Assembly: GCA_963753345.1 (NCBI GenBank)
Contig: CAVWBU010000018.1
Location: forward strand, 64,001 to 128,000
Origin: an uncultured Fibrobacterota bacterium
GTDB lineage: Bacteria > Fibrobacterota > Chitinivibrionia > Chitinivibrionales > FEN-1185
Direction of reading: 5' to 3'
Length of the DNA stretch: 64,000 nucleotides
A program made the translations under genes and the position numbers. The notes beneath the pieces were generated by a model. That model saw nothing but the letters and a program-made list of their open reading frames with translations, did no database searches and was not told where the DNA came from. This document shows positions 942 to 62,413 of this stretch, piece after piece (within the stretch, counting starts at the first letter, position 1; each line of letters begins with the position of its first letter).

Positions 942-1097
942 GGGCGTTCCCCTCGTCTTCGTCAAGACTCAGGCTCGGGTCGGCCGTCCTTCCGGTCTCG
1001 GCCGCAGGCCTCGGGCCGCCTCGGCCCTATGGCCCACAGGGCCGGGTCCGGGCGGCATCCCGCTCTGGCGCGGACCTCCAGTCCGGCCTAACGCGCG
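942..1097 (+). repeat. Structured intergenic motif A, copy 1
   Basis: GGGCGTTCCCC...GGTCGG...CTCGGCC..GGCCTCG...CAGTCC..CCTAACGCG, shared with 7 other copies. Confidence 0.8.
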
Positions 1098-1158
1098 CAA
1101 ACCGTTATTGTCATCAGTCAATTTATTCTCGCGCCAATCGGAATGCTCAAGACCGTCG

Positions 1159-1267
1159 CCTCACCCCGGCCGCCATGGCGGCCACCCCTCTCCACAAGTG
1201 GAGAGGGGAATACAATCAGCATTTTGGACTCCCTTCTCCACGCTGTGGAGAAGGGCTGGGGATGAGG
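1159..1267. repeat. Inverted pair of REP-like palindromes (CCTCACCCC...CCCTCTCC-N-GGAGAGGG type)
   Basis: Hairpins CCCCTCTCCAC/GTGGAGAGGGG and CCCTTCTCCAC/GTGGAGAAGGG; outer ends CCTCACCCC / GGGGATGAGG; same family as 4366-4474. Confidence 0.75.
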
Positions 1268-1295
1268 CGAAACGATTGCGCGACCAATCGGCTCC

Positions 1296-1372
1296 TCAAC
1301 TTTTCAACTATTCAACTTCTTCTTCTCAACTCCTTGGCGTTTCAACTATTCAACGTTTCAACTTTTCAACTA
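1296..1372 (+). repeat. Low-complexity TCAACT tandem repeats (spacer before motif B)
   Basis: tcaacttttcaactattcaact...tttcaactattcaacgtttcaacttttcaact; similar tracts precede motif B at about 14400-14450 (minus) and 48720-48740. Confidence 0.7.
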
Positions 1373-1380
1373 TACTCCTT

Positions 1381-1487
1381 GGGTGCCCCCGCACAGGTGT
1401 CTGGTTCTGCCACTGCTTCCACTTGGGGTGCACCCAGGAGGGGGTAGCGGAGGACCGCAGGGCCGCAGCGAGGGGGATGCTTCCCCC
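1381..1487 (+). repeat. Structured intergenic motif B, copy 1
   Basis: GGGTGCCCCCGCAC...GGGGTGCACCC AGGAGGGGGTAGCG...GAGGGGGATGCTTCCCCC. Confidence 0.8.
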
Positions 1488-1502
1488 GCACAAATATTAT
1501 TA

Positions 1503-4290
1503 TTATCTAGCAATCACCACCCTTTTCACCATCTCCTGTCCGTCAACTAACGCATCTGACAACATATACGCCGTTGGCAAGCAATGACCTCAGGCCAACA
1601 ATAGGATGCCATCCTTCCGCCTGCAAGGACCTCGGAACACGCGCAACAATTCTTCCGCCCGCATCCACAACGTCAACCGACACTTTTGCCGCTCCGCTCA
1701 GATAATATTGTACCATCGCTCCAGTCTGTCTGATCCTGAAATCGAGTGCGGCGCGATGTGCGCCTTGTGGGGCAGGTAACAATACAGACACGGTGGGCGG
1801 CGGCGGCACGGGATACACGGTAAACGAGGTTGTTCCCTGGCCCAGCCCTGCCGAGGTCGCGGTGACGTTTACCGTGCCGGCGGTGAATGTGGAGCGGACG
1901 GCCACCTTGCACATGCCGCCTTCGGCCGAAAGGTTCGGGTCGCCGGGCGCATGATAATTCGCGCCGCCGGGGCCGATCATCTGATCGGCGCCTCCCCGGT
2001 AATTTCCCGGACCGCTAACGCTGAAAGTAATTACGTGGCTGTCCGTGGGGCACCAGGTGCCGTTTGCGTCCACCACCGTTGCGAGAATGAATGCCGCGTC
2101 CGTTGCATTGGCCGTGATCTTGAAGGTGTCGCCGGTGGCCGGATTCACGACCGGCGCGGCGACGGAAAGGGCAATGTGGTCAGGGGCGCCGGCGGTGACT
2201 TTCTGGTCGGAACACACGACGTTTCCATTGGCGTCCAAACCCTGGGCCGTAACTGTGCCTGTCTGCCAGGTTACGTTCCATGTACATTGATGCGCAAAAA
2301 GCGCGTTGGCGTTGCCCGTGTCCGGATACGGCGCTTGATCGTTGCCCTGTTTGACCCCGTTGACAAGCAGTCGCACCGTGGGGCAGTTGGAAAACGCGTT
2401 GACCGTGATCGCACCCGTTCGGTTCCAGTGGTGCGCGAGCGACACCACCGGCCGCACCGAATACGGCAGCCAGCACGCCTGGTATATTTTGTAAAGCATT
2501 TTCGGGATGCGGTTCCAGTCCATCATCGAACAGGCGAAATTCCTGCCCGTGCCGCTTTCGCCGGGCGATTCGGCCATGTACCACTGGCACATGCCGAAGG
2601 CCTTCACATACTTGCCGTATTTCCAGTTCTGCATGTAGACCTGGGCGAAATTGAGCTCGCCGTCGTAATCGAACCGGACTCCTTTGGTGTAGAACCCTTC
2701 GGCCCCGAAGGCGGGTTTGGTGGGCGCGATGCAGCAATGGAGGCCTCCCTCGCATCCGTCAAGAGAACAGGCTATCACCTGGTCCACCGCCATGTCGGAC
2801 TGGTCGTTGCCGCGGTCCTCCTGCGCGCGGGGCATGAGCGAGTCCCATTTGACCACCGTATCCCTGAGCGTCACATCGAACGCATGGTCGATGGGCGCGT
2901 TGCTGCATTCCCAGAGAAGGATGCTTGGATCGTTCCGGTCCCGCACGATCATGTCGCGATGGCATTCGCTCTTGAGCGCCTCGTTGAGCGAATCGGCGTG
3001 CGGCGTGCCGAGCGCCAGGTTTGCGGTCATGAACGAGCCTTCGTCGTCGCCGCTCGGCTGGGCGATCATGACGCCGAATGCGTCGCATGCTTCCACGAAT
3101 TCGTGCGAGCAGGTGGAATGGCCGGGCCGCCACAATCGTCCGCCGCAATCGGCGAGTGTCTTGACATCGCGCCACTGCTGTTCCTCCGGAACCGCGGTCC
3201 CCAGCGCGGGGTAGTCGTATCGGCCGGCCGCGCCCCAGAGATAATGGGGATGACCGTTAACAATGGGAAAATCGGTGTCCCACGTGAGGGTCCGGATGCC
3301 GAGCGGGCTGGTGAAAACGTCGACCGTCTTCCCGCCCACCTTTACAATGTGATACACTTTGTAGAGATACGGCCTGCCGTAGATGCTCGCATTGGGATAC
3401 CACAGGTGCGGGGTGTTTATGGTTGCCGTCTGGTCGAACACGTAGCACGCGCCTGCGTTGACGACATGGGAATCATCGGCGGACCACACCACGGTGCCGG
3501 CCGAATCCACCACCTTGGTGGTGAGGGCAACGGTGACGCCGCCGGCGTTTTCGTTCTGGACGTTGGTAAGGACCCGCACCGTGGCCGACGCATCCGAGGC
3601 CGCCGTCGTCGCCACGCACGTGCCCCAGTTATTGACAACGGAGAACACGTTGAGGGGAATGTGCACCTTGTCGGTCACGTGCATCCACACGGGCCTAAAC
3701 AGTCCGCCGTCGCCCTGGCCGAACCGGAAGTCGTTCGAAAAACTCGGATAGGTGAACCAGGCCGAGCTGGTGGCCACGCGGACCGCCAGAACATTGTCGC
3801 TGCCGTCGAGCTTGACATACTGGGTGATGTCCACCACGAACGGCAAAAAACCGATCACGTGCGTGGCCTGCGGGTTTACCGTGCTGTTGCCCGGAATAAA
3901 CGTTCCGTTGATGTACACCTGCGCGCCGACGTGCGCGCCTTCGAACTCGATAAAGATCTTCTTCCCCGAGTACCCGTTGTCCAAGGTGAAATGCTTACGG
4001 TACCAGCCGGTTATCCCCAAAAGCGCGCCTGCGTTCCCGCCTGCGTCCATGTTGAGGAAGGTGTTCATGTCGTTCCAGGTGTGCGGGATTCCGACCGTGC
4101 TCCACGCTGCGTCGCTGAAGGTCGTTCCCTGTGCGCCGATCGGATCGGACTGGATGAATTTCCACGGGGTGGCGCCGAGGTTGATTTTTGCGCGGTTGCT
4201 CGGTTCACCGTTGTAGTTTTGCGCAAGCGTTGCTGCGGAGAAAACGGTCAGGGTTATGATAAGTGAAATGACAGAGGTCGTTGATCGCAT
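1503..4290 (-). CDS. Glycoside hydrolase family 2 protein with T9SS-tail-like C-terminus; +1 frameshift near 1548 clips about 15 C-terminal residues
   Basis: 915-aa ORF with signal peptide, WYRKHF, FEGAH, LWYP, GIRT and RDRNDPS GH2 motifs; shifted frame continues LVDGQEMVKRVVIAR* to 1503, matching the paralog end VNGQDWYVKRVMMMR. Confidence 0.88.
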
Positions 4291-4365
4291 GGTTCCCCCC
4301 TTTTTTACTGATTAAAAACTATGCGTGCTGCGCACTGAGATGTGTCGATGGTTGCTCTGCTCCAA

Positions 4366-4474
4366 CCTCATCCCCCGGCCCCTTCTCCCGCAGGAGAAGG
4401 GGAGTAAGACGACCAAACTGAAATTCCCCTCTCCCTGTGGGAGAGGGGTGGCCGCGTCAGCGGCCGGGGTGAGG
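4366..4474. repeat. Inverted pair of REP-like palindromes
   Basis: CCTCATCCCCCGGCCCCTTCTCCCGCAGGAGAAGGGG ... CCCCTCTCCCTGTGGGAGAGGGG...CCGGGGTGAGG. Confidence 0.75.
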
Positions 4475-4508
4475 TTACACGAAATCGAAGGTCACTCCCT
4501 TTGCCGCA

Positions 4509-7316
4509 TCATCTCATCATCATAACCCGCTTCACATACCAGTCCTGCCCATTCACCGTGCAGCGGATAAGGTACACGCCGTTGCTCATCGCGTTGCCAC
4601 CCGCCGCACCAGCCCTGAGAGGAATCGCATGCCACCCGCTTTGTTGCTGGGCGTTCGGAACCCGGCACACGACCCTTCCGCTTGCGTCAAGAATGTCAAC
4701 GCTGACAAACGCTTTTTCAGTCATATAATATCTCACCATACCTCCTGTCATGGAGATGGCAAGCTTCGGCATTGACAAAGGCGCAACGGCGCGGACCGGC
4801 GCGTACGTTGCAACAGTGTCGCTGAAAGGATACACGGTGAACGACGTTGCCGCGGCCGCCCCCAGTCCCGGCGATGTCGCGCTCACGGTCACAACACCGG
4901 GAGTAAACGTTGCGCGCACCGCCACCTTGCACTTGCCGCCTTCGGCGGCAAGCTCGGGATCCATTGGGGAATGATAATAAAGCGGCATTCCGGTGGTGAC
5001 AAACTGGTCGCTGCCGCCGCGATAGCTGCCTGCCGCGCCGGAAACGCTGAAGGTGACAAAATGGCTGTCGGTCGGGCACCAGTTGCCGTTGGCATCAACC
5101 ACGGTCGCAAGAATAAAGGCGGCGTCCGAGCCATCGGCCATGATCTTGAACGTTTCGCCGTCCGGCTTCACCAGCGGCGGTTCAACGCTCAGAACAATGT
5201 GATCCGGAGCTCCGGCGGTGACTTTCTGGTCGGAGCACACCACGTTTCCGTTTGCGTCAAGGCCCTGGGCCGTCACCGTGCCGGCCGCCCAGGTAACGTC
5301 CCAGTAACACTCGAACGGAAGCTGCGTGGATGCGGCGTCGTTGGCGTCGCCGGTGCCGGTCCACGGGTTGGGCGTCTTGACACCCTGGCTGACGCCATTC
5401 ACCAGCAGCTTGACGCTCGGGCAGTTGCTGAACGCAAACTCCCGCACCGAACCCGAGCGGTTCCAGTGATGGGAAAGCGCGACAACCGGTTCGAGCGAAT
5501 AGGGCCTCCAGCAGGCCTTGTAGGCGTAGTACAGGAATTTCGGGATCCGGCTGAAATCGACCATGGACGATCCGAATGAGCGGCAGGGCGACTTGCCGTC
5601 TGCAAACGCCCTGTCCTCTCCCGGCGTTTCGGAGAAATACCATTGACAAAGGCCGAAGCAGTTCGCCTGGATGCTCTTGCGCCAGTTCTGGAGGAATTCC
5701 GCGGCATGATAGATTTCCCAGTCGTAGGCCGCCCGCTCCGAAGCACGGCCCCACGCCTCGGCGCCAAAAGCCGGGAGTTGCGGCTGTTGGCTATGCACTC
5801 CTATTTCACATCCGGTAAGGGTGCACGAGGCAATGTCGAGCGGCGACCACGGGGACCCGCGCACATTCTGCCTGCGGGGAGCAAGAGAGTCCCATGTTGT
5901 GCCGATGGCCCGTAACTGGTCGCACAACGTCGGATCGCAGGCGCCGTTGGACGTCTCCCAGGCAAGGATCGACGGATTGTTCCTGTCGCGAATCACCATG
6001 TCCCTGTGGACTTCCTGCTTGAGTCCCGCTTGATACGCAGAATAGTTGCCGGTGGCCCAGTTGTTTTCGCCGTCGCCGCTCGGCTGAATTATCATGACGC
6101 CGTACGCGTCGCATGCCGCAACAAAAACAGGGCCTTCCGCGGAATGTCCCGGCCGCCACAGGTTGCCGCCGCACCCGGCGGTCAGCTTGATGTCGCGCCA
6201 CACCTGTTCGGCGGGTATGGCGGTGCCGAGGGCCGGATAATCGTATCTGCCGGAAGCGCCCCAGAGAAGGTGCTTGTGGCCGTTGATATAGGGGAAATTC
6301 TGGTCCCAGGTGATGGTGCGGATCCCCAGCGGCGTTTCAAAAACGTCAAGCGTGGTCGCCCCGGCTTTCACAATATGATACACCTTGTACATCTTCGGCG
6401 TGCCGAACGTGCTGTTGTTGGGATACCACAGTTGCACCGGCGACGCGTCGCCCTTCTGGTCGAACACGAAGTTCGCGCCAGCGGCCACGGTCTGCGCCTG
6501 GTCCATGGACAACACCACGCTGTTGTTCGACGGATCAACCACTTTTGTGGTGAGAGAAACGGTCTGGCTTGCAGCGCTTTCGTTCTGAACGTTGGTCAGG
6601 ATCCGCAACGTGGCCGAGGTGCCGTTTGTCGCAAGGGTGGCCGCATAGGTTCCCCATTGGTTGACAACTGAAAAGACATTGGCCGGCACATGAACCTTGT
6701 CGGTGATATGCATCCACACCGGCCGGTAAATGCCCTGATCGGCCGAGCCGAACCGGAACACCAGAGAGAAGCCCGGCCAGGTGAGGAATGCGCTCTGGCC
6801 CACCCGGACGGCAAGGACATTGTCTGCGCCGCCGAAATTCAAATTGTAACCGGTGAGGTCCACAATAAAGCCGATAAATCCCAGCACATGCGTTGCCTGG
6901 GGATTGTAGGCGCTGTTTCCCGGAATGAGCGTGCCGTTGCAGTACACCTGACATCCCACGTGCACGCCTTCGAATTCGACGAAAATTTTTCTCCCCGAAT
7001 AGTTGTTGTCCAGCGTAAAGTGCTTCCGGTACCAGCAGGTGCCTTCGAACATCGAGCCGTCGCCGCCGCCGCTGATCTGGTTTTCGAAGGTGTCGGTGTC
7101 GTTCCACGTGTGGGGAATCCCGACGTTTTTCCATCCGGCGTCGTTAAACGCGACGGCCTGGGCGCCCGCGGGGTCGGACCGCTGGAATTTCCACGGCGTG
7201 GCGCCGAAATTGATTTTGACGCGGTTGCTTTGCTCAGGAACGTAGGTTTCGGCAAAACACACCGCCGTCACCAGGATCGCCATCAAAAGCGGGGTTGTAA
7301 AAAGTTGTGTGCGCAC
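4509..7316 (-). CDS. Glycoside hydrolase family 2 protein with T9SS-tail-like C-terminus
   Basis: 935 aa, GTG start after AAGGAGG; GH2 motifs; C-terminus SVDILDASGRVV...NGVYLIR. Confidence 0.9.
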   Translation of the reverse strand: MRTQLFTTPLLMAILVTAVCFAETYVPEQSNRVKINFGATPWKFQRSDPAGAQAVAFNDAGWKNVGIPHTWNDTDTFENQISGGGDGSMFEGTCWYRKHFTLDNNYSGRKIFVEFEGVHVGCQVYCNGTLIPGNSAYNPQATHVLGFIGFIVDLTGYNLNFGGADNVLAVRVGQSAFLTWPGFSLVFRFGSADQGIYRPVWMHITDKVHVPANVFSVVNQWGTYAATLATNGTSATLRILTNVQNESAASQTVSLTTKVVDPSNNSVVLSMDQAQTVAAGANFVFDQKGDASPVQLWYPNNSTFGTPKMYKVYHIVKAGATTLDVFETPLGIRTITWDQNFPYINGHKHLLWGASGRYDYPALGTAIPAEQVWRDIKLTAGCGGNLWRPGHSAEGPVFVAACDAYGVMIIQPSGDGENNWATGNYSAYQAGLKQEVHRDMVIRDRNNPSILAWETSNGACDPTLCDQLRAIGTTWDSLAPRRQNVRGSPWSPLDIASCTLTGCEIGVHSQQPQLPAFGAEAWGRASERAAYDWEIYHAAEFLQNWRKSIQANCFGLCQWYFSETPGEDRAFADGKSPCRSFGSSMVDFSRIPKFLYYAYKACWRPYSLEPVVALSHHWNRSGSVREFAFSNCPSVKLLVNGVSQGVKTPNPWTGTGDANDAASTQLPFECYWDVTWAAGTVTAQGLDANGNVVCSDQKVTAGAPDHIVLSVEPPLVKPDGETFKIMADGSDAAFILATVVDANGNWCPTDSHFVTFSVSGAAGSYRGGSDQFVTTGMPLYYHSPMDPELAAEGGKCKVAVRATFTPGVVTVSATSPGLGAAAATSFTVYPFSDTVATYAPVRAVAPLSMPKLAISMTGGMVRYYMTEKAFVSVDILDASGRVVCRVPNAQQQSGWHAIPLRAGAAGGNAMSNGVYLIRCTVNGQDWYVKRVMMMR

Positions 7317-8823: not shown

Positions 8824-8835
8824 AGAGAGGGGAAC

Positions 8836-9987: not shown

Positions 9988-10018
9988 GATTTTTGCAACT
10001 GGAAGAAGAAATTAAATT

Positions 10019-10165
10019 GGGCGTTCCCCTCCCCCTCGACTTCGCTCGGGGTCGGGTCGGTTCTCCTTCCAGCTCGGCCTTTGGCCTCGTTGCCGGACCA
10101 CCCTATGCCTGTCGGCCGGGTCGTCCGGCAATGCGCTCTCGCGCACTTCCAGTCGCCCCTAACGC
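10019..10165 (+). repeat. Motif A, copy 2
   Basis: GGGCGTTCCCC...TTGCCGGAC...GTCCGGCAA TGCGCTCTCGCGCA...CCCTAACGC. Confidence 0.8.
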
Positions 10166-10179
10166 AAAGAGCAAATACG

Positions 10180-14117: not shown

Positions 14118-14205
14118 AATTCGCGCTCAAAGAATGCAAGTTTCTTTAAATACAAAATATAAGGCTGGGCGCCCCGCAGCTTCACAAAACAGAAGAGACT
14201 CTTGC

Positions 14206-14394
14206 GGGGGAAGTATCCCCCTAGCTACGGCCTCCTCGGCCTTTGGCCTGCGGTGACGTTGTCATTTCATTCCTTAAGGGTATGGTAATGGTGCTTCGCA
14301 CCTTCTAGTATGTCGTTTGCCCTTTCGCTACCCCCTCGTGGGTAGCCGCCTTGACAAAGCGGTTGCGAGACCACGCATTGCTGTGGCGGCACCC
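14206..14394 (-). repeat. Motif B, copy 2
   Basis: Minus strand GGGTGCCGCC...GGCGGCTACCC ACGAGGGGGTAGCG...AGGGGGATACTTCCCCC. Confidence 0.8.
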
Positions 14395-14525
14395 GAGAAG
14401 AGTAGTTGATAAGTTGAGGAGTTGAGAAGAAAAGCGTTGAAAAATGCGAAGAAGAAGCCTGGCTGATTTATTGCAGATGCAGATTAGCGCTAGACAAGGT
14501 AATTGACTGAATAGAATTCTGTTGC

Positions 14526-14692
14526 CGCGCGTTAGGTGGACCGGAGGGTGAGCTGAAGCGAATTGCCGGCCGATCCCGGCCGCAGGCGATTGGGACGGTC
14601 CGGCAACGAGGCCGAACGGCCGAGCCCGCAGGGACGACGCCTCGAAGCACCCGAAGGGGTGGACCGACCCGAGTGGAGCGAGGGGAACGCCC
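14526..14692 (-). repeat. Motif A, copy 3
   Basis: Minus strand GGGCGTTCCCC...TTGCCGGACC...CGGCCGGCAA...CCTAACGCG, followed by GAATTCTATTCAGTCAA. Confidence 0.8.
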
Positions 14693-15012
14693 AAATTCAT
14701 TCAATTATAATGCTCTCTTTCATCAGGCCCGTTACACAATCGTATAACGGAAAATGCTTTTGCCGTCATCATTCCCGACCCCAACGCACGGAGGGTGTTT
14801 ATATTATTCCAATACGGCCCGGGGTGTTTCGCGAAAGTAAAGCAGGTTTAACGCCGACTGGAATGAAGCGAGACTGCCATGAAAGAAACCTCACCTTTTG
14901 TCTCCCCCTTTTAGGGCTCTCCTTGTCAAGCCAGGGAGGGCCCGGGTGAGGTTTTTTCCATTGCGGATTGGACGGAATCGGCAATGATCAATCCGCAAAG
15001 AGAAATGCCCTG

Positions 15013-20571: not shown

Positions 20572-20603
20572 TCCAGTGGTTGATCATAGCGGTGGGATAC
20601 TTA

Positions 20604-21525: not shown

Positions 21526-21585
21526 TAAGAGCTTATCCGTAAATAATGATTTGGGCTGCACCTGGCTGCAAAAAAAGGAGAACTA

Positions 21586-32304: not shown

Positions 32305-32494
32305 TAATTCCTCGAAGCTTGCTTCGACTTTAACTCACCCCTACTCGCTTCGCTCGGCGACGCTTCGAAGCACCCGACGGGGTGTTTCCCCTCTCTTTTC
32401 CCTCTTCAGGGATGCCCGAAGGGGCACAAGAGAGTGGATTAAGGGGTGAGTTGTAGATTCTGGATTCCTCGCAGCTTGCTGCGGGGTTCTTCAA
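32305..32494 (+). mobile_element. Putative non-autonomous IS200/IS605-like miniature element
   Basis: Bounded by hairpins TCGAAGCTTGCTTCGA and CCTCGCAGCTTGCTGCGGGG; ends TTCAA; no ORF. Confidence 0.4.
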
Positions 32495-34648: not shown

Positions 34649-34685
34649 AAATGTCCAGCCTGTCTCAAAAGTCAAGAGAAGATCT

Positions 34686-34821
34686 GGGCGCCTCGCCGAA
34701 GACGGCGGCGGTTCTCCTTTCGCGCTCGGCTATTCGCCTCGTTGCCGGACCGCCCTAGTCGCCTGCGGCGAGGGTCGGCCGGCAATGCGCTCTGGCGCAC
34801 CCTTCAGTCCAACCTGGCGCG
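34686..34821 (+). repeat. Motif A, copy 4
   Basis: GGGCGCC...TTGCCGGACC...CGGCCGGCAA TGCGCTCTGGCGCA...CCTGGCGC. Confidence 0.8.
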
Positions 34822-34940
34822 TGGCATCAGTATTGTTCCACAATCAACATCTGCCTGACAAAAGAGAATTCAGTTGTGTCGATCCAAGTTGATCTCGGAT
34901 GGCGCAAGAAACATCTCTTGACAGAGTAAACTCCAGTTGG

Positions 34941-35103
34941 CGCGCGTTAGGTGGACCGGAGGGTGAGCAAAAGCGAATTGCCGCCTGACCACGGCCGAAG
35001 GCCATTGTGGCAGGCGGCAACGAGGCGATCAGCCGAGCCCGCTGGGACGACGCCTCGAAGCACCCGAAGGGGTGGACCGACCCCGCAAAGCGGGGGAACG
35101 CCC
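34941..35103 (-). repeat. Motif A, copy 5 (inverted relative to copy 4)
   Basis: Minus strand GGGCGTTCCCC...TTGCCGCCTG...CAGGCGGCAA...CCTAACGCG. Confidence 0.8.
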
Positions 35104-35121
35104 AGATCTGTACTCTACTCT

Positions 35122-44398: not shown

Positions 44399-44420
44399 TA
44401 AAATGTGACAATATTTATAA

Positions 44421-44543
44421 GGGGGAAGGCTCCCCCTCGCTCCGGTCTCCTCGGACTTCGTCCTCAAATACCTCCGCTACCCCCTCCTGGGTGTCCGCCT
44501 TGACAAAGCAGCTGCAAGACCATGCATTGTTGTGGCGGCACCC
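44421..44543 (-). repeat. Motif B, copy 3
   Basis: Minus strand GGGTGCCGCC...GGCGGACACCCAGGAGGGGGTAGCG...GAGGGGGAGCCTTCCCCC. Confidence 0.8.
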
Positions 44544-44701
44544 ACGGGGAATTGTGGATTGAGGAATGTGGATTGAAGGCGATAGATGCGAGTGAAGTGA
44601 AGCAATCACCGGCAACGTTGACGTTTGGCAATTGACCGCGGATCTTCAGCGCATGCGAAATTGCGCAAGAAGAACTACTTGACGGAATAGATTCCGGCTA
44701 C

Positions 44702-44870
44702 CGCGCGTTAGGGGCGACGGAGTGGTCCCGCCGAAGCGGGATTGCCGGCCGACGACCCTTGGAAGCACCCGACGGGGTGCCCCGCCGCAACGCGGCTTCG
44801 GGGCGGTCCGGCAACGAGGCGAACAGCCGAGCCCGGAGGAGAACCGACCCCGCAAAGCGGGGGAACGCCC
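44702..44870 (-). repeat. Motif A, copy 6
   Basis: Minus strand GGGCGTTCCCC...CCCTAACGCG then GAATCTATTCCGTCAA. Confidence 0.8.
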
Positions 44871-44903
44871 ATCCCCCTCGACTTCTATTACTGCGTGTAA
44901 TAG

Positions 44904-45523: not shown

Positions 45524-45820
45524 GGCTTCTCCTTTGTGAAGTAAGCTGATTTTATTTGATTGATTTGCTCTTGAAAGGATTGGGCTGACCCAAACAAAAT
45601 GACTTGGAAGTGGGCTTGGATATCAAACTACAATCTGCATTCGTCGCTGTCCATGTTGGATCTTAGGTTGGTTTTAACACTTGTGCGGGCTGCCATCAAC
45701 AGGATTAAGAGAAGGAAATACATCCCGATAGTTGATAGCTCAAAGAGGGATAATTGCCAATCACCCTAAATATACCGAACAGCGTAGATTGAATGAGTTT
45801 ACAGAATAGATTTCCTCTGC

Positions 45821-45961
45821 CGCGCGCCAGGCAGGACTGGAGGCCGCGCTGGAGCGCGGTGCCGCCCGGACCCGCCGCGTCAGCGGCGTAGGGCCGAGGC
45901 GGCCCGAGGCCGAAGGCCGAGACCGGAAGGACGGCCGCCGCTGCGAAGCAGCGGGGCGCCC
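45821..45961 (-). repeat. Motif A, copy 7
   Basis: Minus strand GGGCGCCCC...CCTTCCGGTCTCGGCC...GGGCCGCCTCGG...CCGGGCGGCA...CCTGGCGCG. Confidence 0.8.
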
Positions 45962-45977
45962 ATATTTTTAACACTCT

Positions 45978-46685: not shown

Positions 46686-47454
46686 GGCCGCCCTCTTTTC
46701 CGAGATAGGCCTCGATCACGCGCGGGTCGCTGCGCACGTCGGCGGGCGCGCCCTGCGCTATTGTTTCTCCAAAGTCAAGAACAACGATCCTTTGCGAGAC
46801 CTTCATGATCACGTGCATGTTGTGCTCGATGATGAGCATGGTGAGGCCGAAGCGTTCCTTGACCCACAGGATGGTGTCGATAAGGTCCTTTGCCTCGTTG
46901 AGGTTCATGCCCGCGGCGGGCTCGTCGAGCAGCAGCAGCGACGGCCCGGTGGCGATCGCGCGCGCGATCTCCAGGCGGCGCTGCTGACCGTAGGCCAGCG
47001 AGGAACTGCGCAGATCCGCCTTTGCCTCGAGCCCGAAAATGGACAACAGGTCGCGGCACCAGGCATCGAGGTCGTGCTCGCTTGTCCAGAACCGGGGCGG
47101 ATGGAACAGCGACGCGGCAAGGCCGTAGCCCGTACGGCGCCGTGCCGCCACCTTGATGTTGTCGATAATCGACATGTCGTGAAACAGGCGGATGTTCTGG
47201 AATGTCCTTGCAATGCCTTTGCGGTTCACTGCATGCGGCGCGAGGCCCGCCACCGACTCGCCGTTGAACACGATGTCGCCCCTGCTCGGTTTGTAGATGC
47301 CCGAGATCAGGTTGAACACCGTAGTCTTGCCCGCGCCGTTGGGACCGATGAGCCCAACAAGCTCGCCGCGCTCCATTGACAGATTAAAGTCCGCCACGGC
47401 GCACAGGCCGCCGAAGTAGCGGGTGAGGCCGGTTATGGTGAACAGCGGCATCAT
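46675..47454 (-). CDS. livG: Branched-chain amino acid ABC transporter ATP-binding protein
   Basis: GPNGAGKT, ARTFQNIRLF, LAYGQQRRLEIARA, DEPAAGM, IEHNM. Confidence 0.92.
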   Translation of the reverse strand: MMPLFTITGLTRYFGGLCAVADFNLSMERGELVGLIGPNGAGKTTVFNLISGIYKPSRGDIVFNGESVAGLAPHAVNRKGIARTFQNIRLFHDMSIIDNIKVAARRRTGYGLAASLFHPPRFWTSEHDLDAWCRDLLSIFGLEAKADLRSSSLAYGQQRRLEIARAIATGPSLLLLDEPAAGMNLNEAKDLIDTILWVKERFGLTMLIIEHNMHVIMKVSQRIVVLDFGETIAQGAPADVRSDPRVIEAYLGKEGGHAA

Positions 47455-48476
47455 GATTTCCTTTTTTCCACCATTTCCTTGTATTTCCACGGCACAAGGA
47501 ACGAAAACTCGCGCTCGCCCATGATCCCGTCACGCAGGAACCGCATCACCAGAATGAGGATGAGCGGGTAGATGGCCATGCGCCATGCCTCCAGGTTTAC
47601 AAGCCGGAGGCCTTCGGGTACGAGGGTGAAAATGCCCGCTCCCACGATGCTGCCCGCGATGCTGTGCGGCCCGCCTATGTACAGAAAGATGAGAATGTCG
47701 AGCGTCTTGAGAAAGCCGAAGTTGTCGGGATTGATGTAGCGGCTCAGGTGGGCAAACAAGGCGCCGGCGATGCCCGCGAAAAAGGCGCCGAGCGCAAAAG
47801 CGCACACCTTCTGGAACGTGGCGTTGACGCCCATGCAGGAAGCCGCGATTTCGTTGTCGCGCACGGCAATGCACGCCCTGCCGAAATGCGAATACACGAA
47901 GTTGCGCATCATCCAGAGCGAAAGAACAAAGAACGCGCCCACGTAGAATGCTCCGGAAAACGCGGGAATGGCGGGAATGCCGCGCGGCCCGCCCAGAACG
48001 TCGGTGAAGCGAAGCCCGGCCCGGATCACCTCGCCTGCGGCAAGCGTCACGATGGCAAGGTAATCGCCGCGCAGCCGAAGCGAAGGAAAACCGATGGCAA
48101 TGCCGAACGCGCCGGCCGCGGCGCCGCCCGCAAACACCGACAGCACAAACACCGCGTGGCCCGCAATAGACGTCGCGGCAAGCGGAGTGCCGAAAATCAA
48201 CTTCGGCAGCAGGGTGGTTATCGTCGCCGAGGCGTACGCGCCGATGGCCATGAATCCCGCATGCCCGAGTGAGAACTGGCCCGAGAAGCCGTTGATAAGC
48301 GCGAGCGACGCCGTGAGGATGATGTTGATTTCGATGAGAAAGAAGATGCGGGAGTAATACTGGAACTGGCGGTGGCCGGAAAACATTCCGAGCGCCGTTT
48401 GGGCGATAATGAATATGCCCAAGATCAGGAGGACCTTGGTCGTATGTTGTGGCTTTGATTCGATTTGTAAATGCAT
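47451..48476 (-). CDS. livM: Branched-chain amino acid ABC transporter permease
   Basis: GQFSLGHAGF, LRLRGDYLAIVTL, AVRDNEIAA. Confidence 0.9.
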   Translation of the reverse strand: MHLQIESKPQHTTKVLLILGIFIIAQTALGMFSGHRQFQYYSRIFFLIEINIILTASLALINGFSGQFSLGHAGFMAIGAYASATITTLLPKLIFGTPLAATSIAGHAVFVLSVFAGGAAAGAFGIAIGFPSLRLRGDYLAIVTLAAGEVIRAGLRFTDVLGGPRGIPAIPAFSGAFYVGAFFVLSLWMMRNFVYSHFGRACIAVRDNEIAASCMGVNATFQKVCAFALGAFFAGIAGALFAHLSRYINPDNFGFLKTLDILIFLYIGGPHSIAGSIVGAGIFTLVPEGLRLVNLEAWRMAIYPLILILVMRFLRDGIMGEREFSFLVPWKYKEMVEKRKS

Positions 48477-48496
48477 GTAAATAGACCTTAAGATTT

Positions 48497-48638
48497 GGGC
48501 GTCCCCGCTGCTTCGCCGCGGCGGCCCTCCTTCCAGGCTCGGCCTATCGGCCTCGTTGCCGCCTGCCGCAATGGCTCTTTGAGCCGCGGTCAGGCGGCAA
48601 TGCGCTCTGGCGCACCTTCCAGTCCTGCCTGGCGCGCG
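48497..48638 (+). repeat. Motif A, copy 8
   Basis: GGGCGTCCCC...TTGCCGCCTG...CAGGCGGCAA TGCGCTCTGGCGCA...CCTGGCGCG then GAATCTCTATTCAGTCAA. Confidence 0.8.
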
Positions 48639-48745
48639 GTAGAAGAATCTCTATTCAGTCAACGTTGTAACAGCGCCATTCCGCATCCTCAGCACACTAG
48701 TCAATGGTTCTTTCTTTGCTTTTCAACTTAGCAACTTTCGCTCGT

Positions 48746-48882
48746 GGGTGCCCCCGCACAGGTGTATGGTTCTTCGCGGCGCCATCAAGGGGGCCACCCG
48801 GGAGAGGGGGGTGCCGAGCGACACCGCAGTCCCAGCTGCAGGCGGGGCGGGGAGGCGAGGCCAGGGGAGATACCTCTCCCCC
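48746..48882 (+). repeat. Motif B, copy 4
   Basis: GGGTGCCCCCGCACAGGTGT...GGGGGCCACCC...GGGGAGATACCTCTCCCC. Confidence 0.78.
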
Positions 48883-48912
48883 AATAAATTTTAGTCATTT
48901 AATTGGCAATTT

Positions 48913-50076
48913 TTACACTTTTTCCTGCTCACTTTTCCCCAGAATTCCTGTCGGCTTGACAAGAAGGATGATCATCAATATGATAAACGCCGCGGCAAAC
49001 CCGAGGTTCGAATCCACCGAATTCGCGAACACCTCCGATATTCCCATGATAAATGCTCCGATCACCGCGCCGGGCAGGCTGCCGATGCCGCCGAGGACCG
49101 CGGCGATAAACGCCTTCATGCCGGGCGCAAAACCCAGAAACGGCGACTGGAGCACGCCGTAGTTCATGGCGTAAAGAATGCCCGATGCGCCCGCCAGCGC
49201 GGGGCCGATCACAAAGGTGAGCGCAATGATTCCGTTGACGTCAATGCCCATGAGCGCGGCGGCGTCATGGTTGAACGCCACAGCCCGCATCTGTTTTCCC
49301 AACAGCGTCTTCTCCACGAGGAACCAGAGCAGCAACAGCAGCAACCCGCACACGGCGATGTTGATGACGAACATGTTGGTGACCGAGACGTCGAGCCCGG
49401 GAATGCGCAGGAGGTCGACCCGCTTGAGCAGGTCGGGGAACGCGCGGTACTTGTTTTCGAACACCATGGGCAGGGAGCAGAAGTTCTCGAGGAAGTAGGA
49501 AACGCCGAGCGCGGTGATGAGCACCGAGAGCCTCTTCCTGCGGCGCAGCGGCCGGTAGGCGATGCGCTCCATGGCGGCGCCGAGCACGGCGCAAACTGCC
49601 ATTACGTAAAGCACGAGCAGGGGAAAAAACAGCAGGCCGAGCCTTAGCGAGTAGAGACCGCGTGAAATCGCGAGCAGCGCGGGCGCGATCGCGCAGGTGA
49701 GCGCGGCAATGCACACTAGTTTCGCCGCGTTTTCCGCGGCAACCTGCGCGGCCTTCACCCGGAACAGGCCCCCGAGAACCGGCAGGTTGCGCATCGCGAA
49801 CCGCTCGAACAGGACGGCCGTGATGAGATACGCCAGCGCCAGTCCGACAAGGACGCAGAGCTGCGGCGGAAACGCAGCCGACCCTGCGTAAAACGAGGCG
49901 GCGAAGAACGCAACATACGCGCCCACCATAAAGATATCGGCGTGGGCGAAATTGATGAGCTTGATCACGCCGTAGACAAGCGTGTACCCCAGCGCGATAA
50001 GGGCGTAGATGGAGCCGAGCTGGAGGCCGTTGATCAATTGCTGGAGGAGGTAGGACAGCATGGGCGAGCTATGCAT
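48913..50076 (-). CDS. livH: Branched-chain amino acid ABC transporter permease (with internal hydrophobic insertion)
   Basis: QQLINGLQLGSIYALIALGYTLVYG..INFAH, ERIAYRPLR, KAFIAAVLGGIGS, KPTGILG. Confidence 0.9.
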   Translation of the reverse strand: MHSSPMLSYLLQQLINGLQLGSIYALIALGYTLVYGVIKLINFAHADIFMVGAYVAFFAASFYAGSAAFPPQLCVLVGLALAYLITAVLFERFAMRNLPVLGGLFRVKAAQVAAENAAKLVCIAALTCAIAPALLAISRGLYSLRLGLLFFPLLVLYVMAVCAVLGAAMERIAYRPLRRRKRLSVLITALGVSYFLENFCSLPMVFENKYRAFPDLLKRVDLLRIPGLDVSVTNMFVINIAVCGLLLLLLWFLVEKTLLGKQMRAVAFNHDAAALMGIDVNGIIALTFVIGPALAGASGILYAMNYGVLQSPFLGFAPGMKAFIAAVLGGIGSLPGAVIGAFIMGISEVFANSVDSNLGFAAAFIILMIILLVKPTGILGKSEQEKV

Positions 50077-56031: not shown

Positions 56032-56179
56032 GGCAACGCGGGTGGGCAAGTATCCTCCATGCAGGCAACTGATGGGTTGGTGATGACCTTGGTGCCCGGT
56101 ATCCGTTCCCAATCAAAAGTACGTGGCGGAAACGCAATATCTCAAAATTCCTGCGGCGGCGCAGGCGGAGGTTAAAAAC

Positions 56180-58444: not shown

Positions 58445-58725
58445 GGTGTGTGGAGAGGTGGTCCACAATTACGGCCGCATCGACAACAATTCTCGCGCAA
58501 ACAAGGTGCTGAGCGTCGAACTGGCGTTGATCACCGCGCAGGGTGGGAAATACTGGCTTCAGTTCTCGTCCGGGCAGAGCGACCATTTTGACTGGCCCAT
58601 ATCAATACTCAAGCCGGTGAGGGAGGCTCTTCAGCGGTAGGGACTGCTATGGCGAGCGAAGCTTTTCATGCACGACGCCTCCCGTTGCTCGGGAAATGCC
58701 TTTGCTTTATGTCAATCACTTCCCG

Positions 58726-59292: not shown

Positions 59293-60020
59293 GCGTTCCC
59301 CTTTGTTGAGAGTTGATCGATTGAATTCGCAAGTGACTTGATCGCGTTTGCATAGGCAGGGAATGCTTCGGTCATTTCGTTCTTGCTGCCGCGCCGGGCC
59401 GCCTCAAGCGCCTTTTCCAGAGACATGTCGTCTATGCCGTAGGCTTTTGCGACGGCGGCGAAAAGCGATTTTCTGTCCTTTGGGATCGGAAGGCTTTTTA
59501 CGTGGAGCATGCCCTTGAAAATCGGCGAGAAATCCTTTGAGGAGATTTCCATCAGCCTTCTGAGCCGTGCGGGATTTTTCCTCGATGCAAGCCAGCCCCG
59601 CACAAGATGCAGCCATTTTCCCTTGATTTCCCGCTCGATCTGGAGCCGCAGATCTTCGCTGCGGATCAGGATGTCTTTGAGAACGTCCTCGCCAAAAACA
59701 ACCGTGTAGCTGTCCTTCATGGCAAGAAACTCCACAGGGAACGAATCCAAAGAGCGGGTGATGTACTCCTTGTCCATGATGAGCGGTCGGGAAAAGCGTT
59801 TCTTCATCCATTTTTCCTGGCACCCGGCCGACTTTTCAAGCACGGGCAGGGTGACGGCCGAGAGAACGACAAGGAGGTTGACGTCCGATTTTCTCGGGTC
59901 GAAATCCGGTCCTGCCGCGCTGCCGTAGACGATAACGGACAGCAGGTCGTTGCCGTAGCATGTCCGAAAATCAAGCGCGGCGCTGCGCGCAAGTTCGATT
60001 GGATTGGTCAGCTTGCTCAT
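59289..60020 (-). CDS. Nucleotidyltransferase-domain protein
   Basis: VIVYGSAAGPDFDPRKSDVNLLVV; typical neighbour of lemA/TPM genes. Confidence 0.75.
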   Translation of the reverse strand: MSKLTNPIELARSAALDFRTCYGNDLLSVIVYGSAAGPDFDPRKSDVNLLVVLSAVTLPVLEKSAGCQEKWMKKRFSRPLIMDKEYITRSLDSFPVEFLAMKDSYTVVFGEDVLKDILIRSEDLRLQIEREIKGKWLHLVRGWLASRKNPARLRRLMEISSKDFSPIFKGMLHVKSLPIPKDRKSLFAAVAKAYGIDDMSLEKALEAARRGSKNEMTEAFPAYANAIKSLANSIDQLSTKGNA

Positions 60021-60154
60021 TTGCAAACCTCTTCCTGTTTTCTCTGAGAAAGCTCAATTTCAAATTGTGGAGTGTGTCATTTTTTTTCTTGGTCTCGAAT
60101 CAAAAATAACGACCATCGTCAACTTTCAACCTTAAACTTTGAACTTTCAACTTC

Positions 60155-60940
60155 TCAAAAACCCCGTGATGCTCCGCCTCCGCCGCTGCCGCCGCCCCCG
60201 AACCCTCCGCCGAAGCCCCCGCCGCCGAAACCGCCGCCGAAACCGCCGCTTCTGCCGCCGCGGCCTCCGCTGAAAAGCCCCATGAGGAACATTGTCCAGA
60301 GTAGTGTGCGGCCGAACGGCGTCGCCATGAGGAAAATCAGCACGACGATAAAAAGGACGGCCTTGAGCAGGGAAACCTTTCTGAAGCGATACTGCTCCGG
60401 CGCGCGCTGCTCTTGGCCCGGCAAAGCAAGGCTGATGTTTTTTTCGTGGGCAACAATCCGCGCTATTGTGATGGAGACATTCAGAAGGCCCGCGGAGTAG
60501 TCGTTGGTCTTGAAGAACGGGACGCCGGACTCGTCGAGTATTCTTCCCGCCTTTGCGTCGTTGAGATACCCTTCGGATCCATAGCCGACTTCGATGCGCG
60601 CTTTCCGGGGGTCGAGCGAAAGCAGAACGAGCGCCCCCTCGTCCGATCCAGTCCTGCCGATTCCCCACCTTTTGTAAAGCTCCGGCGCGTATTCGTCGAT
60701 TGTCGCGTTTTCAAGTTTCGGCAGTGTAGCCACCACAAGGCCGAAGCCTGCCTGTTCCCAGAGCGCCTGGGCGATAAGGGCAATTTTCTGTTGGGTCGGC
60801 TGGTCGACCACGCCGGCAAAGTCGGCAACGGGCCCGGACGGACGGGTGGGATATTCCTGGCCGGAAACGGCACCGCACAGGGCAACTGTGCAACAGATGG
60901 TTGCGAAGAGCGGGCTTCTTGCTCGATGCGTATTCTTCAT
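60155..60940 (-). CDS. TPM (YgcG-like) domain protein
   Basis: VADFAGV, WGIG, RIEVGYGSEG, Gly-rich C-terminus GGGGSGGGGASRGF. Confidence 0.9.
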   Translation of the reverse strand: MKNTHRARSPLFATICCTVALCGAVSGQEYPTRPSGPVADFAGVVDQPTQQKIALIAQALWEQAGFGLVVATLPKLENATIDEYAPELYKRWGIGRTGSDEGALVLLSLDPRKARIEVGYGSEGYLNDAKAGRILDESGVPFFKTNDYSAGLLNVSITIARIVAHEKNISLALPGQEQRAPEQYRFRKVSLLKAVLFIVVLIFLMATPFGRTLLWTMFLMGLFSGGRGGRSGGFGGGFGGGGFGGGFGGGGSGGGGASRGF

Positions 60941-61275
60941 CTTCCTCTTGGCGCAGGGTTCGTGCTCGTAGAAATATACTTGCTCTCCGCTGCAACCGTG
61001 ACTTCGCCTGTATAAGACGGTTGCACCCGGCTCCGTGGATTTTGCTGAACGCCAGCGACAAATCCATCCGCCGCTTTGAAAACATTATTGTGCCGGAGTC
61101 GCGTGTCAACCATCCAGCCTGCAGTGTGCAGTAGTCAATGAGAGAGCATTTTCCTCTGGAGCCCAACCCGCATGGCCGCTCCGACAACGTTGAAAGAAAT
61201 TCGGGAAAAGGGTATATTCTCAAGCAAGGCGCGCGAAACGAATATCCAGGGAATAGGAACCGGGCCGTGAGAGCG

Positions 61276-62154
61276 ATGAAAAGAATAATGGTCATGCTGT
61301 CGGCGCTAAGACCCTTGCAATGGACAAAAAATGTTTTTGTTTTCGGCGCCCTGTTCTTTTCGAAGAATCTTTTCAATCCGCACGCTTTCGCCGTAGTCTG
61401 TTCCGCATTTGTGATTTTCTGCCTGCTTTCGGGTTCCTACTACATTTTCAACGACATCTGCGACAGGGAAGGGGACAGGAATCATCCGGAAAAGTCCAGG
61501 CGCCCCATTGCTTCGGGCAGGCTGCCGGTGTCCCAGGCGGTTGCGCTGATGGTGTTCTGCGCAATTGCCTCCCTGGCGTGGGCCTTCTTTCTTGGACTAC
61601 CTTTCTTTGCGGTTTGCCTGTCCGCGATTGTTCTGCAGTGCGCGTACTCTCTCGCGTTGAAAAAGATCGTCATCGTTGATGTGTTCGTCATCGCAATCAC
61701 CTTTGTTCTGAGGGTCGTGGCGGGCGGCGTCGCCATCCATGTCGAGATTTCCTCGTGGATTCTCATCTGCACCCTGCTTCTCGCGCTTTTCCTCGCGCTC
61801 GGAAAACGCCGGCAGGAATTCCTGCTGATTTCGGGCGGGGCGGCGCACCGCAGGAAAGTGCTTGACGACTACAACCTGCCGTTGCTCGACCAGATGACCT
61901 CCGTTGTGGCCGCATCGACGGTCATCACCTATGCGCTCTACACCGTTTCCGAAAGCACGCTGCGGAGGGTCCACTCCAGCAACCTTATGTATACGATCCC
62001 CTTTGTCCTCTACGGCGTCTTCAGGTATCTGTATCTTATTCACCGGGAGCAAAAAGGCGGGAGCCCGGAAACCGTTCTTCTCACCGACAAACCGCTTTAT
62101 ATTTGCATCCTCTTGTATCTGGCAACGGCCGGAGCAATACTGTATGTCAAGTGA
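61276..62154 (+). CDS. UbiA-family decaprenyl-phosphate phosphoribosyltransferase-like protein
   Basis: LRPLQWTKN, YIFNDICDREGDRNHPEKSRRPIASG, KRRQE. Confidence 0.88.
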   Translation: MKRIMVMLSALRPLQWTKNVFVFGALFFSKNLFNPHAFAVVCSAFVIFCLLSGSYYIFNDICDREGDRNHPEKSRRPIASGRLPVSQAVALMVFCAIASLAWAFFLGLPFFAVCLSAIVLQCAYSLALKKIVIVDVFVIAITFVLRVVAGGVAIHVEISSWILICTLLLALFLALGKRRQEFLLISGGAAHRRKVLDDYNLPLLDQMTSVVAASTVITYALYTVSESTLRRVHSSNLMYTIPFVLYGVFRYLYLIHREQKGGSPETVLLTDKPLYICILLYLATAGAILYVK

Positions 62155-62265
62155 CGGGGCCCGATTCGCCGCCGCGGTCCTGCCCGTTGATTTTCTTATC
62201 CGTCGTGATTGCCTCCGTCACGTGTGACCATACTTGCAGAAGTTCACTCTTCAATTACTCTCCGT

Positions 62266-62413
62266 GGGTGCCCCCGCACGAGTGTTTGATTCTTGCAACC
62301 GCACCTTCTTGGGGTGCACCCAGGAGGGGGTAGCGAAAGACCAGCGGGCGATTGACGATGATCAACCATTATAGTACGCACGCTGGGCTGTAGCGAGGGG
62401 GAGCCTTCCCCCC
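62266..62413 (+). repeat. Motif B, copy 5 (no recognisable motif A upstream)
   Basis: GGGTGCCCCCGCAC...CTTGGGGTGCACCCAGGAGGGGGTAGCG...GAGGGGGAGCCTTCCCCC. Confidence 0.8.

Follow-up and report, generated by a model that had tools for sequence, protein, structure and literature searches.

What kind of element sets two different folded motifs, in a fixed order and polarity, between the ordinary genes of a bacterial chromosome? The question is raised by a 64-kb stretch of DNA from an uncultured Fibrobacterota bacterium of the order Chitinivibrionales (assembly GCA_963753345.1, contig CAVWBU010000018.1, positions 64,001 to 128,000), hereafter called the window. The metagenome-assembled genome (MAG) to which it belongs has 4.52 Mb in 55 contigs with 55.9% GC, and is 94% complete. 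An earlier note on this DNA had described the two motifs, A and B, as parts of a composite A-spacer-B unit, and had read the unit either as one large bipartite structured RNA or as the two ends of a non-autonomous mobile element. Three covariance models were used: R1 for the A core, R2 for B, and R3 for a widespread core element. The blocks shared by the copies of the window were also recovered by a repeat search independent of these models (D14, D19, I1, I9, I11). We conclude that A and B probably form a lineage-specific, amplified mosaic interspersed repeat, similar in kind to the bacterial interspersed mosaic elements (BIME) and to BOX, and built on a widespread, uncatalogued element.

Structure of the A and B modules

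The five B copies reported in the window are all matched by R2 (114-138 bits), and the four composite units are present where they had been placed. In units 1 to 4 the A core and B lie on the same strand, separated by 277, 125, 152 and 101 nt, which is near the 105-285 nt claimed. The usual composite is ordered as follows: an A core of about 150 nt with seven helices, a short A tail, a variable spacer, a tract of NTTCAACN with an 8-nt period, B, and a terminal hairpin. Sizes range from 135 to 170 nt for the A core, with its 7 helices, and from 115 to 200 nt for B. The layout of B is a long hairpin, GAGGGGGUAGCG, a variable arm and then the terminal GGGGGA-loop-UCCCCC hairpin. The finer description of B was accurate as well: a GGGTG/CACCC stem encloses CCCC/GGGG, replaced by CGCC/GGCG in units 2 and 3 (14.2 and 44.4 kb), and GGGGGTAGCG, the variable arm and the terminal hairpin (GGGGGA-loop-TCCCCC as DNA) are all present. 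The pyrimidine-rich repeats mentioned before B are the NTTCAACN array: ahead of the B core, 140 A-B units have TCAAY at 3.0 per 100 nt (0.24 in the genome as a whole), with 172 spacings of exactly 8 nt.

R1 (149 positions, 36 pairs) matches 128 copies of A in 455 kb, comprising the window and 20 dense regions, and R2 (142 positions, 33 pairs) matches 75 copies of B. Among the A copies 90.9% of the cells are paired, and 444 cells carry a double change, compared with 149.5 after shuffling and 18-116 when the partners are slid. For B the paired fraction is 89.0%, with 156 double-change cells compared with 57.6 after shuffling. The switching pair of the B inner stem is CG in 57 copies and GC in 18, and the closing stem of A passes from GCGUU/AACGC to GCGCC/GGCGC in 42 copies. 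Both modules are real and folded, with compensatory changes. Their copies are old and diverged: pairs of copies have a median identity of 72% in A and 69% in B, and no A copy (of 128) or B copy (of 75) reaches 97%. G-U cells outnumber A-C cells in both modules (371 vs 55 in A, 307 vs 71 in B). When only the Watson-Crick-dominant pairs are considered, these values become 141 vs 55 cells and 11 vs 8 pairs for A, and 116 vs 67 cells and 9 vs 7 pairs for B.

Distribution and linkage in the genome

Searching the whole genome by nhmmer with profiles made from the window copies gave 415 matches to A (360 near full length) and 285 to B (270 near full length). The near-full B copies are distributed as follows: 197 have a same-strand A just upstream, with a median gap of 43 nt between matches; one has an A on the opposite strand; 72 have no A within 400 nt. 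B follows 187 of the near-full A copies and is missing behind the other 173. In terms of units, these make 185 A-B composites, 175 solo A and 90 solo B. The linkage proposed from four loci is therefore not random, with 197 of 270 B copies behind an A, but the modules are separable, as the many solo copies indicate; the association is far beyond chance all the same. The approximately 450 units represent roughly 4% of the 4.5-Mb genome and fill about one intergenic gap in seven. Only 10 of the 450 overlap by more than 60 nt a gene called as the longest ORF (open reading frame).

The units have a preferred position with respect to genes. Downstream of B, in the sense of B, the neighbouring gene is convergent for 67 of 85 solo B and for 107 of 179 A-B units, and no bias in gene orientation is observed upstream of A. 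The distance from the terminal hairpin to the stop codon of the convergent gene has a median of 33 nt (from a regular-expression count in which some hairpins are counted twice), and all five B copies of the window conform, with distances of 23-92 nt. As a rule the repeats follow closely on the end of a convergent gene, so that transcription of this gene probably continues into their reverse complement, which would form a structured 3' or intercistronic region. The bias with respect to replication is weak: the sense strand of 97 of 161 A-B units is on the C-rich strand, a value confounded with gene direction.

An autonomous parent carrying an ORF between A and B had been suggested, and none was found. 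In seven cases A and B are separated by 400-5000 nt free of repeat-like sequence; the ORFs enclosed, mostly on the opposite strand, look by eye like ordinary secreted or membrane proteins.

A widespread core element in the 3' half of B

A pattern representing the 3' half of B (GAGGGGGYAGCG, 15-45 nt, GCGWGGGGGA, 4 nt, TCCCCC) was scanned over one genome per GTDB species. The exact pattern was found in at least 116 stretches, assigned by record title to at least six phyla. Carriers among the matches listed are many Treponema, including the isolates T. bryantii, T. pectinovorum and T. ruminis, as well as Spirochaetaceae, Gracilinema, a Leptospira, Fibrobacter succinogenes, Fibrobacteraceae, Chitinispirillales, Chitinivibrionales, a Nitrospirae MAG, Collinsella and Ca. 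Ancillula. By phylum, the core element occurs in many dispersed copies in Spirochaetota and Fibrobacterota, and also in Bacteroidota, Nitrospirota, Actinomycetota and Acidobacteriota and on alphaproteobacterial plasmids. A GGGCGYYRCR head is present within 60 nt upstream of 75 of 123 pattern matches. In outline the element is GGGGCGUU...GAGGGGGUAGCG...GGGGGA-loop-UCCCCC, roughly 80 nt with three hairpins; in full, about 75-100 nt are occupied by GGGGCGUU, hairpin 1, AGAGGGGGUAGCG, hairpin 2, GAGCGA and hairpin 3. Hairpin 1 is GCGGGG-loop-CCCCGC, for which 9 of 36 sequences show covariation from GC to AU; in hairpin 2 the stem covaries and its internal loops are rich in purines.

R3 was built from 36 core-element sequences, none of them from this genus, and it recovers four of the five B copies of the window (26.7-52.5 bits), missing the variant of unit 4. 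Elsewhere the copy numbers obtained with R3 are lower bounds, 150 candidates per genome having been scored: at least 48 in the complete genome of T. ruminis, 31 in T. bryantii, 16 in T. pectinovorum, 6 in the Leptospira and 51 in an F. succinogenes MAG. At the gathering score, Rfam 15 gave no match on the 64-kb window and only a tRNA on 13 loci from other phyla, and E-value scans of units 1 and 3 and of locus L087 gave chance-level matches only. The 3' half of B is a member of a much older three-hairpin element, strongly conserved in sequence and absent from Rfam 15. A in turn starts with (T)GGGCGTT, the same 5' octamer as that of the core element, whose 3' end is the end of B. Since A shares its octamer and B its end, the composite resembles the small element in having a single GGGCGTT head and a single hairpin-3 tail.

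These results bear in two ways on the earlier idea that A and B are the two ends of a non-autonomous element. The common octamer and the common 3' end speak for it; against it, the genome yielded neither an ORF-bearing parent nor a recognisable mobilising enzyme. The earlier note would have given up its reading if B matched a known repeat independent of A. The B core does occur independently of A and is widespread, but the element to which it belongs is uncatalogued. We found no description of these elements in the literature on Chitinivibrionales, on Treponema and Fibrobacter repeats, on non-coding RNA motifs, or under the literal motif strings; the cross-phylum core and its plasmid context are new here.

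The 44 copies examined in T. ruminis have sharp constant ends and unrelated flanks, and are often 0-20 nt from the flanking ORFs. They show no target duplication (longest common substring, LCS, of 3.11 vs 3.17 in shuffled pairings), no terminal inverted repeats and no conserved target tetranucleotide 5' of the element. No recurrent neighbouring protein family appeared at the 123 pattern matches or at the chromosomal loci in other phyla, and blastn gave no core-element match in phages.

Short tandem arrays specific to each lineage accompany the core element. A Prevotellaceae MAG has at least 25 copies, many at contig ends, preceded by (TAATCAC)x19 (locus positions 3297-3427 and 3637-3771); a 21-nt unit repeated 6 times occurs nearby in some cases, (TTTGACTT)n follows the element in other Fibrobacterota, and (NTTCAACN)n precedes B here. 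At the locus of the Nitrospirae MAG (3506-5715), a DUF3226 and AAA_15/AAA_21 ATPase gene pair with a defence-system-like look adjoins the core element. The T. ruminis copies of three subfamilies have a G-run ahead of hairpin 2 whose sequence, read backwards, is that of the hairpin 3 purine strand (AGGGGG/GGGGGA, AAGGGG/GGGGAA, GAGGGG/GGGGAG). Exact mirrors number 24 of 42, vs 11.7 after shuffling, a level reached in none of 2000 shuffles; the copies of the present genome give no such signal (56 of 74 vs 56.5 shuffled). The relation may come from subfamily inheritance, from alternative pairing of the C-run or from a triple-helix contact and, if real, would suggest that the folded strand contains a purine-motif triple helix.

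The core element on plasmids

A blastn search placed the core element on 15 plasmid records, near full length on 11 of them, from Sphingobium, Sphingomonas, Tardibacter, Magnetospira, Granulicella and T. saccharophilum; A had no match on plasmids. The eight plasmid loci inspected are all full R3 matches (47-71 bits). In seven of them the sense strand of the element is opposite to a block of co-directional genes, and six have ardC, ssb, a ParB-like nuclease, DUF4942/DUF3768, LPD29 or a RepB primase within 3 kb. On pDE3, transcription of the block at 9.2-25.8 kb, which contains ssb, DUF3768, DUF6884 and a gene for a CHC2 zinc-finger protein, runs towards traA, the gene of the relaxase. According to PMC11541004, the genes of conjugative leading regions are read from the transferred strand; since the pDE3 arrangement matches the leading regions described there, the sense strand of the element would be the transferred strand. 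Folded as single-stranded DNA (ssDNA), both strands of the plasmid element are more stable than shuffled sequences (z = -3.1 to -4.2), the sense strand by a further 1-4 kcal/mol over its complement.

Relatives, strain variants and module exchange

Among the 41 genomes searched, this one included, A is present in 11 and B in 12. Both reach at least tens of copies in the same four of five sister species; searches of the fifth, a genome 99% complete, and of two further genera in this family gave neither module. Matches in other families of the order were weak. Three genomes of two such families have B-like copies at 14 loci, where all that is kept of B is its 3' half, preceded by a short hairpin, and at none of the 14 does A lie within 1.5 kb (best R1 E = 0.64). 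One of the other families has an 8-nt TTTGACTT tract after the element, not before it, and the long form of B is also seen in another Chitinivibrionales MAG. A, an add-on, is confined to this order.

Variation between strains can be read from the MAG itself. Many short contigs (C2-C17, C25, C29, C38, C39, C43-C46, C50-C55) are 89-99.9% identical to parts of larger contigs, which reflects strain heterogeneity, and the differences between these variants are concentrated in the repeat-bearing intergenic gaps. Three cases are described here. Between C4 and C16 a gap measures 61 nt vs 478 nt, and the right breakpoint coincides precisely with the start of the B core at its 5' end. Where C4/C16 are compared with C5, one haplotype holds A and a reversed A, and the other holds another A subfamily followed by a tract and B. 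In C2/C26 and C3/C10, A is present or absent along with about 80 nt of unrelated DNA on each side. Among the sister species, the gap orthologous to that of unit 4 contains in one genome (G005) a different A subfamily and a B-type copy with the variant strings of unit 4, the protein flanking the gap being only 76% identical; two others (G004 and G002) have no unit there. The DNA contigs of four sequencing runs show 25-40-fold pile-ups at the repeats and are broken there.

Signs of transposition were also looked for. Over 56 A-B units the direct-repeat LCS was 3.29 vs 3.35 in shuffled pairings, flank complementarity gave z = 1.2, and no terminal inverted repeats were found. The genome has no match to Y1_Tnp, the domain of REP-associated tyrosine transposases (RAYT; PF01797), to the TnpB-type domain (PF07282) or to the reverse transcriptase domain RVT_1 (PF00078). 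The pattern of strain variants and orthologous gaps is better explained by long residence with exchange of modules than by recent clean insertions. Copies trade modules while their intergenic sites stay fixed, in a way that looks more like recombination or gene conversion than like clean cut-and-paste insertion.

Nature of the repeat

The units were compared with the known classes of dispersed repeats. Miniature inverted-repeat transposable elements are defined by terminal inverted repeats and target-site duplication, and neither was found at the A-B units or at the T. ruminis copies. Association with a RAYT, as in REPIN-RAYT systems of repetitive extragenic palindromic (REP) sequences, has no support in this 94% complete genome, where PF01797 has no match; this domain is present in two of five other carrier genomes, at loci without an R3 match. 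The A core, B and the core element (75-100 nt, 3 hairpins) are all larger than the 20-40 nt imperfect palindrome of a REP unit. For a palindrome-associated transposable element (PATE) of the IS200/IS605 family, or the omega-RNA of TnpB, TnpA and TnpB are missing in this genome, and the 123 pattern matches have no recurrent neighbour protein. Ends of IS200/IS605 type are nevertheless what is observed, with hairpins near both ends and neither terminal inverted repeats nor target-site duplication. A retroelement-derived repeat (group II intron, retron, diversity-generating retroelement) has no RVT_1 match in the genome to go with it. The class that fits is the BIME/BOX-type mosaic, understood as a way of working and not as homology: the units are intergenic, multi-copy, made of separable modules in a preferred order, and occur in incomplete forms.

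As to function, action as a folded single strand is our best lead. In the establishment (leading) region of plasmids, beside ardC and ssb, the core element could serve as an ssDNA signal, for example for priming or early expression, and the chromosomal copies would be amplified derivatives kept foldable by selection. Extended to its full length, this account would have a cross-phylum, strand-specific folded ssDNA signal, serving the incoming plasmid strand, escape to chromosomes, multiply there to tens or hundreds of copies without a resident transposase and, in one Chitinivibrionales genus, fuse with A and the tract into a composite of 400-500 nt; we offer this scenario tentatively and regard it, taken as a whole, as doubtful. 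Several points weigh against the main reading, that of a mosaic repeat whose core acts as a folded single strand. The covariation counts include inherited subfamily differences and are inflated by them, and the gene calls in this genome are crude longest-ORF calls. A mobilising gene could be missed in a MAG that is 94% complete. Minimum free energy, alifold and ssDNA z-scores do not tell the two strands of the repeats apart as to folding, and the lead of G-U is small when counted by pairs. On the plasmids, both the transferred strand and the nic site are deduced from gene orientation, and the loci, five of which are from Sphingomonadaceae, amount to about three independent lineages. No -35/-10 hexamers of the TTGACA/TATAAT kind, such as define Frpo in PMC11541004, are visible by eye in the GC-rich element. 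In other phyla the chromosomal neighbours are ordinary genes (flagellar rod genes, FKBP) and extend to methylase and Fic/RhuM genes, and T. ruminis shows no orientation bias (16/10/9/9), so that the plasmid context need not explain the chromosomal copies.

Three other explanations have to be weighed. The element could be a non-autonomous HUH transposable element, IS200/IS605-like, cut at the GGGGCGTT 5' end and after the terminal hairpin and moved as a single strand in trans, possibly by an enzyme of visiting plasmids or integrative and conjugative elements. The sharp constant ends, unrelated flanks and lack of target duplication or terminal inverted repeats in T. ruminis, likewise in this genome, speak for such a process, as do the hairpins near both ends, the octamer common to A and the core, and the presence of the element in many copies in many phyla and on plasmids. 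The enzyme is the difficulty: this genome has no Y1_Tnp or TnpB-type domain, three of the five other carriers have no Y1_Tnp, and where Y1 genes exist they are not flanked by the element. A conserved 5' target tetranucleotide and a recurrent neighbour protein are also lacking in the sets described above, strain variants replace whole segments without clean insertions, and no copies are 97% identical or more; we see transposition of this kind as possible, though more doubtful than convincing. A cis-acting RNA, comparable to REP in E. coli mRNAs and acting in 3'-end protection, termination, insulation of cistrons or binding of a dedicated protein, would agree with the median distance of 33 nt from B to the stop codon of the convergent gene, with the orientation bias of solo B (67/85) and with units placed between adjacent same-strand genes (the 48.5-kb gap by the BPD_transp_2 permease, and between GH2 genes). 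It would also agree with a structure kept despite identities of about 70%, and with the sister-species copy of B type that bears the unit 4 variant strings at that gap despite only 76% identity of the protein beside it. We consider this role unlikely, however. The co-transcribed strand is the reverse complement of the strand with the conserved G-U pairs, T. ruminis has no orientation bias, no U-tract was seen after either strand in the unit sequences or in the T. ruminis copies, and two sister species have no unit at the gap of unit 4.

The proposal that A and B are cooperating domains of a single bipartite structured RNA of 390-550 nt did not survive the genome-wide count. Order and polarity are indeed fixed in 197 of 270 B copies and both modules are structured, but among about 450 units there are 175 solo A and 90 solo B, modules are swapped independently between strains, B-core elements exist without A in other families, other phyla and plasmids, and the spacer varies in length and holds unrelated repeats. 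Such an RNA is thus very improbable, and we retain the mosaic repeat built on the core element as the probable explanation of A and B.

Comparison with known repeats and signals

BOX of Streptococcus pneumoniae, an intergenic modular repeat of the form boxA-boxB(n)-boxC with a tandem unit of about 45 nt, is close to the present repeat by description: both are multi-copy composites of fixed order and polarity, with two different folded end modules, short tandem units between them, and incomplete forms. The modules are larger here (seven helices in A), the tandem unit is 8 nt instead of about 45 nt, and one module has relatives across phyla; kinship in sequence with BOX would not be expected. 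A second comparison is with REP/BIME elements and the REPIN-RAYT systems of Enterobacteria and Pseudomonas, REP being a species-specific imperfect palindrome of 20-40 nt. They resemble the present repeat in being extragenic, in having hundreds of copies and mosaic combinations of motifs, in lying often past stop codons or inside operons, and in forming hairpins as single strands. They differ in that this genome and three of five other carriers have no RAYT, and in that the core sequence here is conserved across phyla. PATEs derived from IS200/IS605 and the omega-RNA scaffolds of TnpB are likewise strand-specific with hairpins at both ends and without terminal inverted repeats or target-site duplication, but the present genome has no TnpA or TnpB, no adjacent ORF and no conserved 5' target.

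Two signals are comparable to the core element in its plasmid setting. STAXI (Ssb, Topoisomerase, Antirestriction, XerDC integrase) is a neighbourhood motif with repeated pseudoknots that forms an Rfam family. Like the core element it is a structured non-coding motif beside ssb and antirestriction genes of mobile DNA, with a suspected action as ssDNA, but the core element has no match in Rfam, STAXI included, and has three hairpins instead of repeated pseudoknots. The other comparison is with Frpo, which is not known to be amplified in chromosomes. The Frpo/ssi signals of conjugative-plasmid leading regions (PMC11541004) share with the core element a location among ssb, ardC and establishment genes, the transferred strand (for the core element, the putative one) and a stable single-strand fold; Frpo is a hairpin of about 300 nt with -35/-10 boxes, and by this description is set apart from the core element, which is about 80 nt, GC-rich and made of three short hairpins.

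Should the above hold, a conserved structured element of at least six phyla, present in cultured Treponema and Fibrobacter, has escaped the catalogues of RNA families and can now be searched. Its location by ssb and ardC on the presumed transferred strand would bear on the priming or expression of incoming ssDNA outside the Frpo paradigm. The Chitinivibrionales genus would show such an element elaborated into a modular repeat of several hundred nucleotides without a recognisable transposase, and would bear on the problem of how bacterial interspersed repeats spread and stay foldable.

Repeats and genes of the window

The copies of the window are given in Table 1. The genes that flank them are ordinary by Pfam: GH2, BNR, GH64, a response regulator, an ABC ATPase, a BPD_transp_2 permease, UbiA and TPR. 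These neighbours agree with those named in the earlier note, with Glyco_hydro_2 domains on both sides of unit 1 and, on one side of unit 4, the BPD_transp_2 permease.

Table 1. Positions of A and B copies, their parts and the genes around unit 4 in the window
Feature	Position	Strand	Model score	Remarks
Unit 1, A core	941..1098	+	R1 109.4 bits	seven-helix module beginning TGGGCGTT
Unit 1, A tail and spacer	1099..1291	+		tail: small hairpin, GTCAA and GCGCCAATC
Unit 1, unrelated repeat in spacer	within 1099..1291	+		CCTCACCCC...GGAGAGGGG; inverted repeat I15
Unit 1, tandem tract	1292..1378	+		8-nt period NTTCAACN, ahead of B; repeat family D16
Unit 1, B	1376..1490	+	R2 118.6 bits; R3 52.5 bits	
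Unit 1, 3' half of B	1427-1489	+	R3	matches the widespread core element
Solo A	10018..10169	+	R1 107.8 bits	
Unit 2, A core	14525..14693	-	R1 111.7 bits	
Unit 2, B	14203..14399	-	R2 134.2 bits; R3 26.7 bits	long variable arm; CGCC/GGCG variant
Solo A	34685..34824	+	R1 128.2 bits	tail to tail with the copy at 34940..35104
Solo A	34940..35104	-	R1 129.3 bits	convergent with the copy at 34685..34824
Unit 3, A core	44701..44871	-	R1 78.6 bits	
Unit 3, B	44418..44548	-	R2 138.3 bits; R3 43.6 bits	
Solo A	45820..45962	-	R1 96.5 bits	GCGCC/GGCGC closing-stem subfamily
Unit 4, A core	48496..48639	+	R1 129.5 bits	in gap between two minus-strand ORFs
Unit 4, B	48741..48883	+	R2 114.4 bits	variant GAGAGGGGGG...GGGGAGA-loop-TCTCCCC
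Solo B	62261..62415	+	R2 114.1 bits; R3 50.1 bits	
Unit 4, flanking ORF	47451-48476	-		BPD_transp_2 permease (Pfam)
Unit 4, flanking ORF	48913-50076	-		

Two plus-strand ORFs of 175 and 215 aa (920-1447 and 940-1587) cross unit 1; they are by-products of the GC-rich repeat and liable to be annotated wrongly as genes. For annotators, the repeat explains the long spurious ORFs in such gaps and the contig breaks in these MAGs. The unrelated repeat in the spacer of unit 1 belongs to a third type, CCTCACCCC...CCCCTCTCC-loop-GGAGAGGGG, found in the window at 1159-1193 within that spacer and, standing alone, at 4440-4474 and at about 32330-32450, and also in the genome of the sister species G004 (locus position about 1400-1450).

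Other repeats of the window are of a different kind. A 930-bp IS-like repeat at 20600-21529 has 28-nt terminal inverted repeats (I22, 93% complementary) and at least five near-identical copies on other contigs; its 267-aa ORF (20674-21477) has no Pfam family match. It was considered as a mobiliser of A and B and set aside, its ends being unlike A or B. Three 264-nt tandem repeats (79% and 69% identity; family D2) lie at 19207-19998, inside a 671-aa ORF (18556-20571). Finally, the region 2-7316 contains three successive paralogous GH2-type genes with common blocks that are 70-86% identical (D1, D3, D4, D7, D11, D15).

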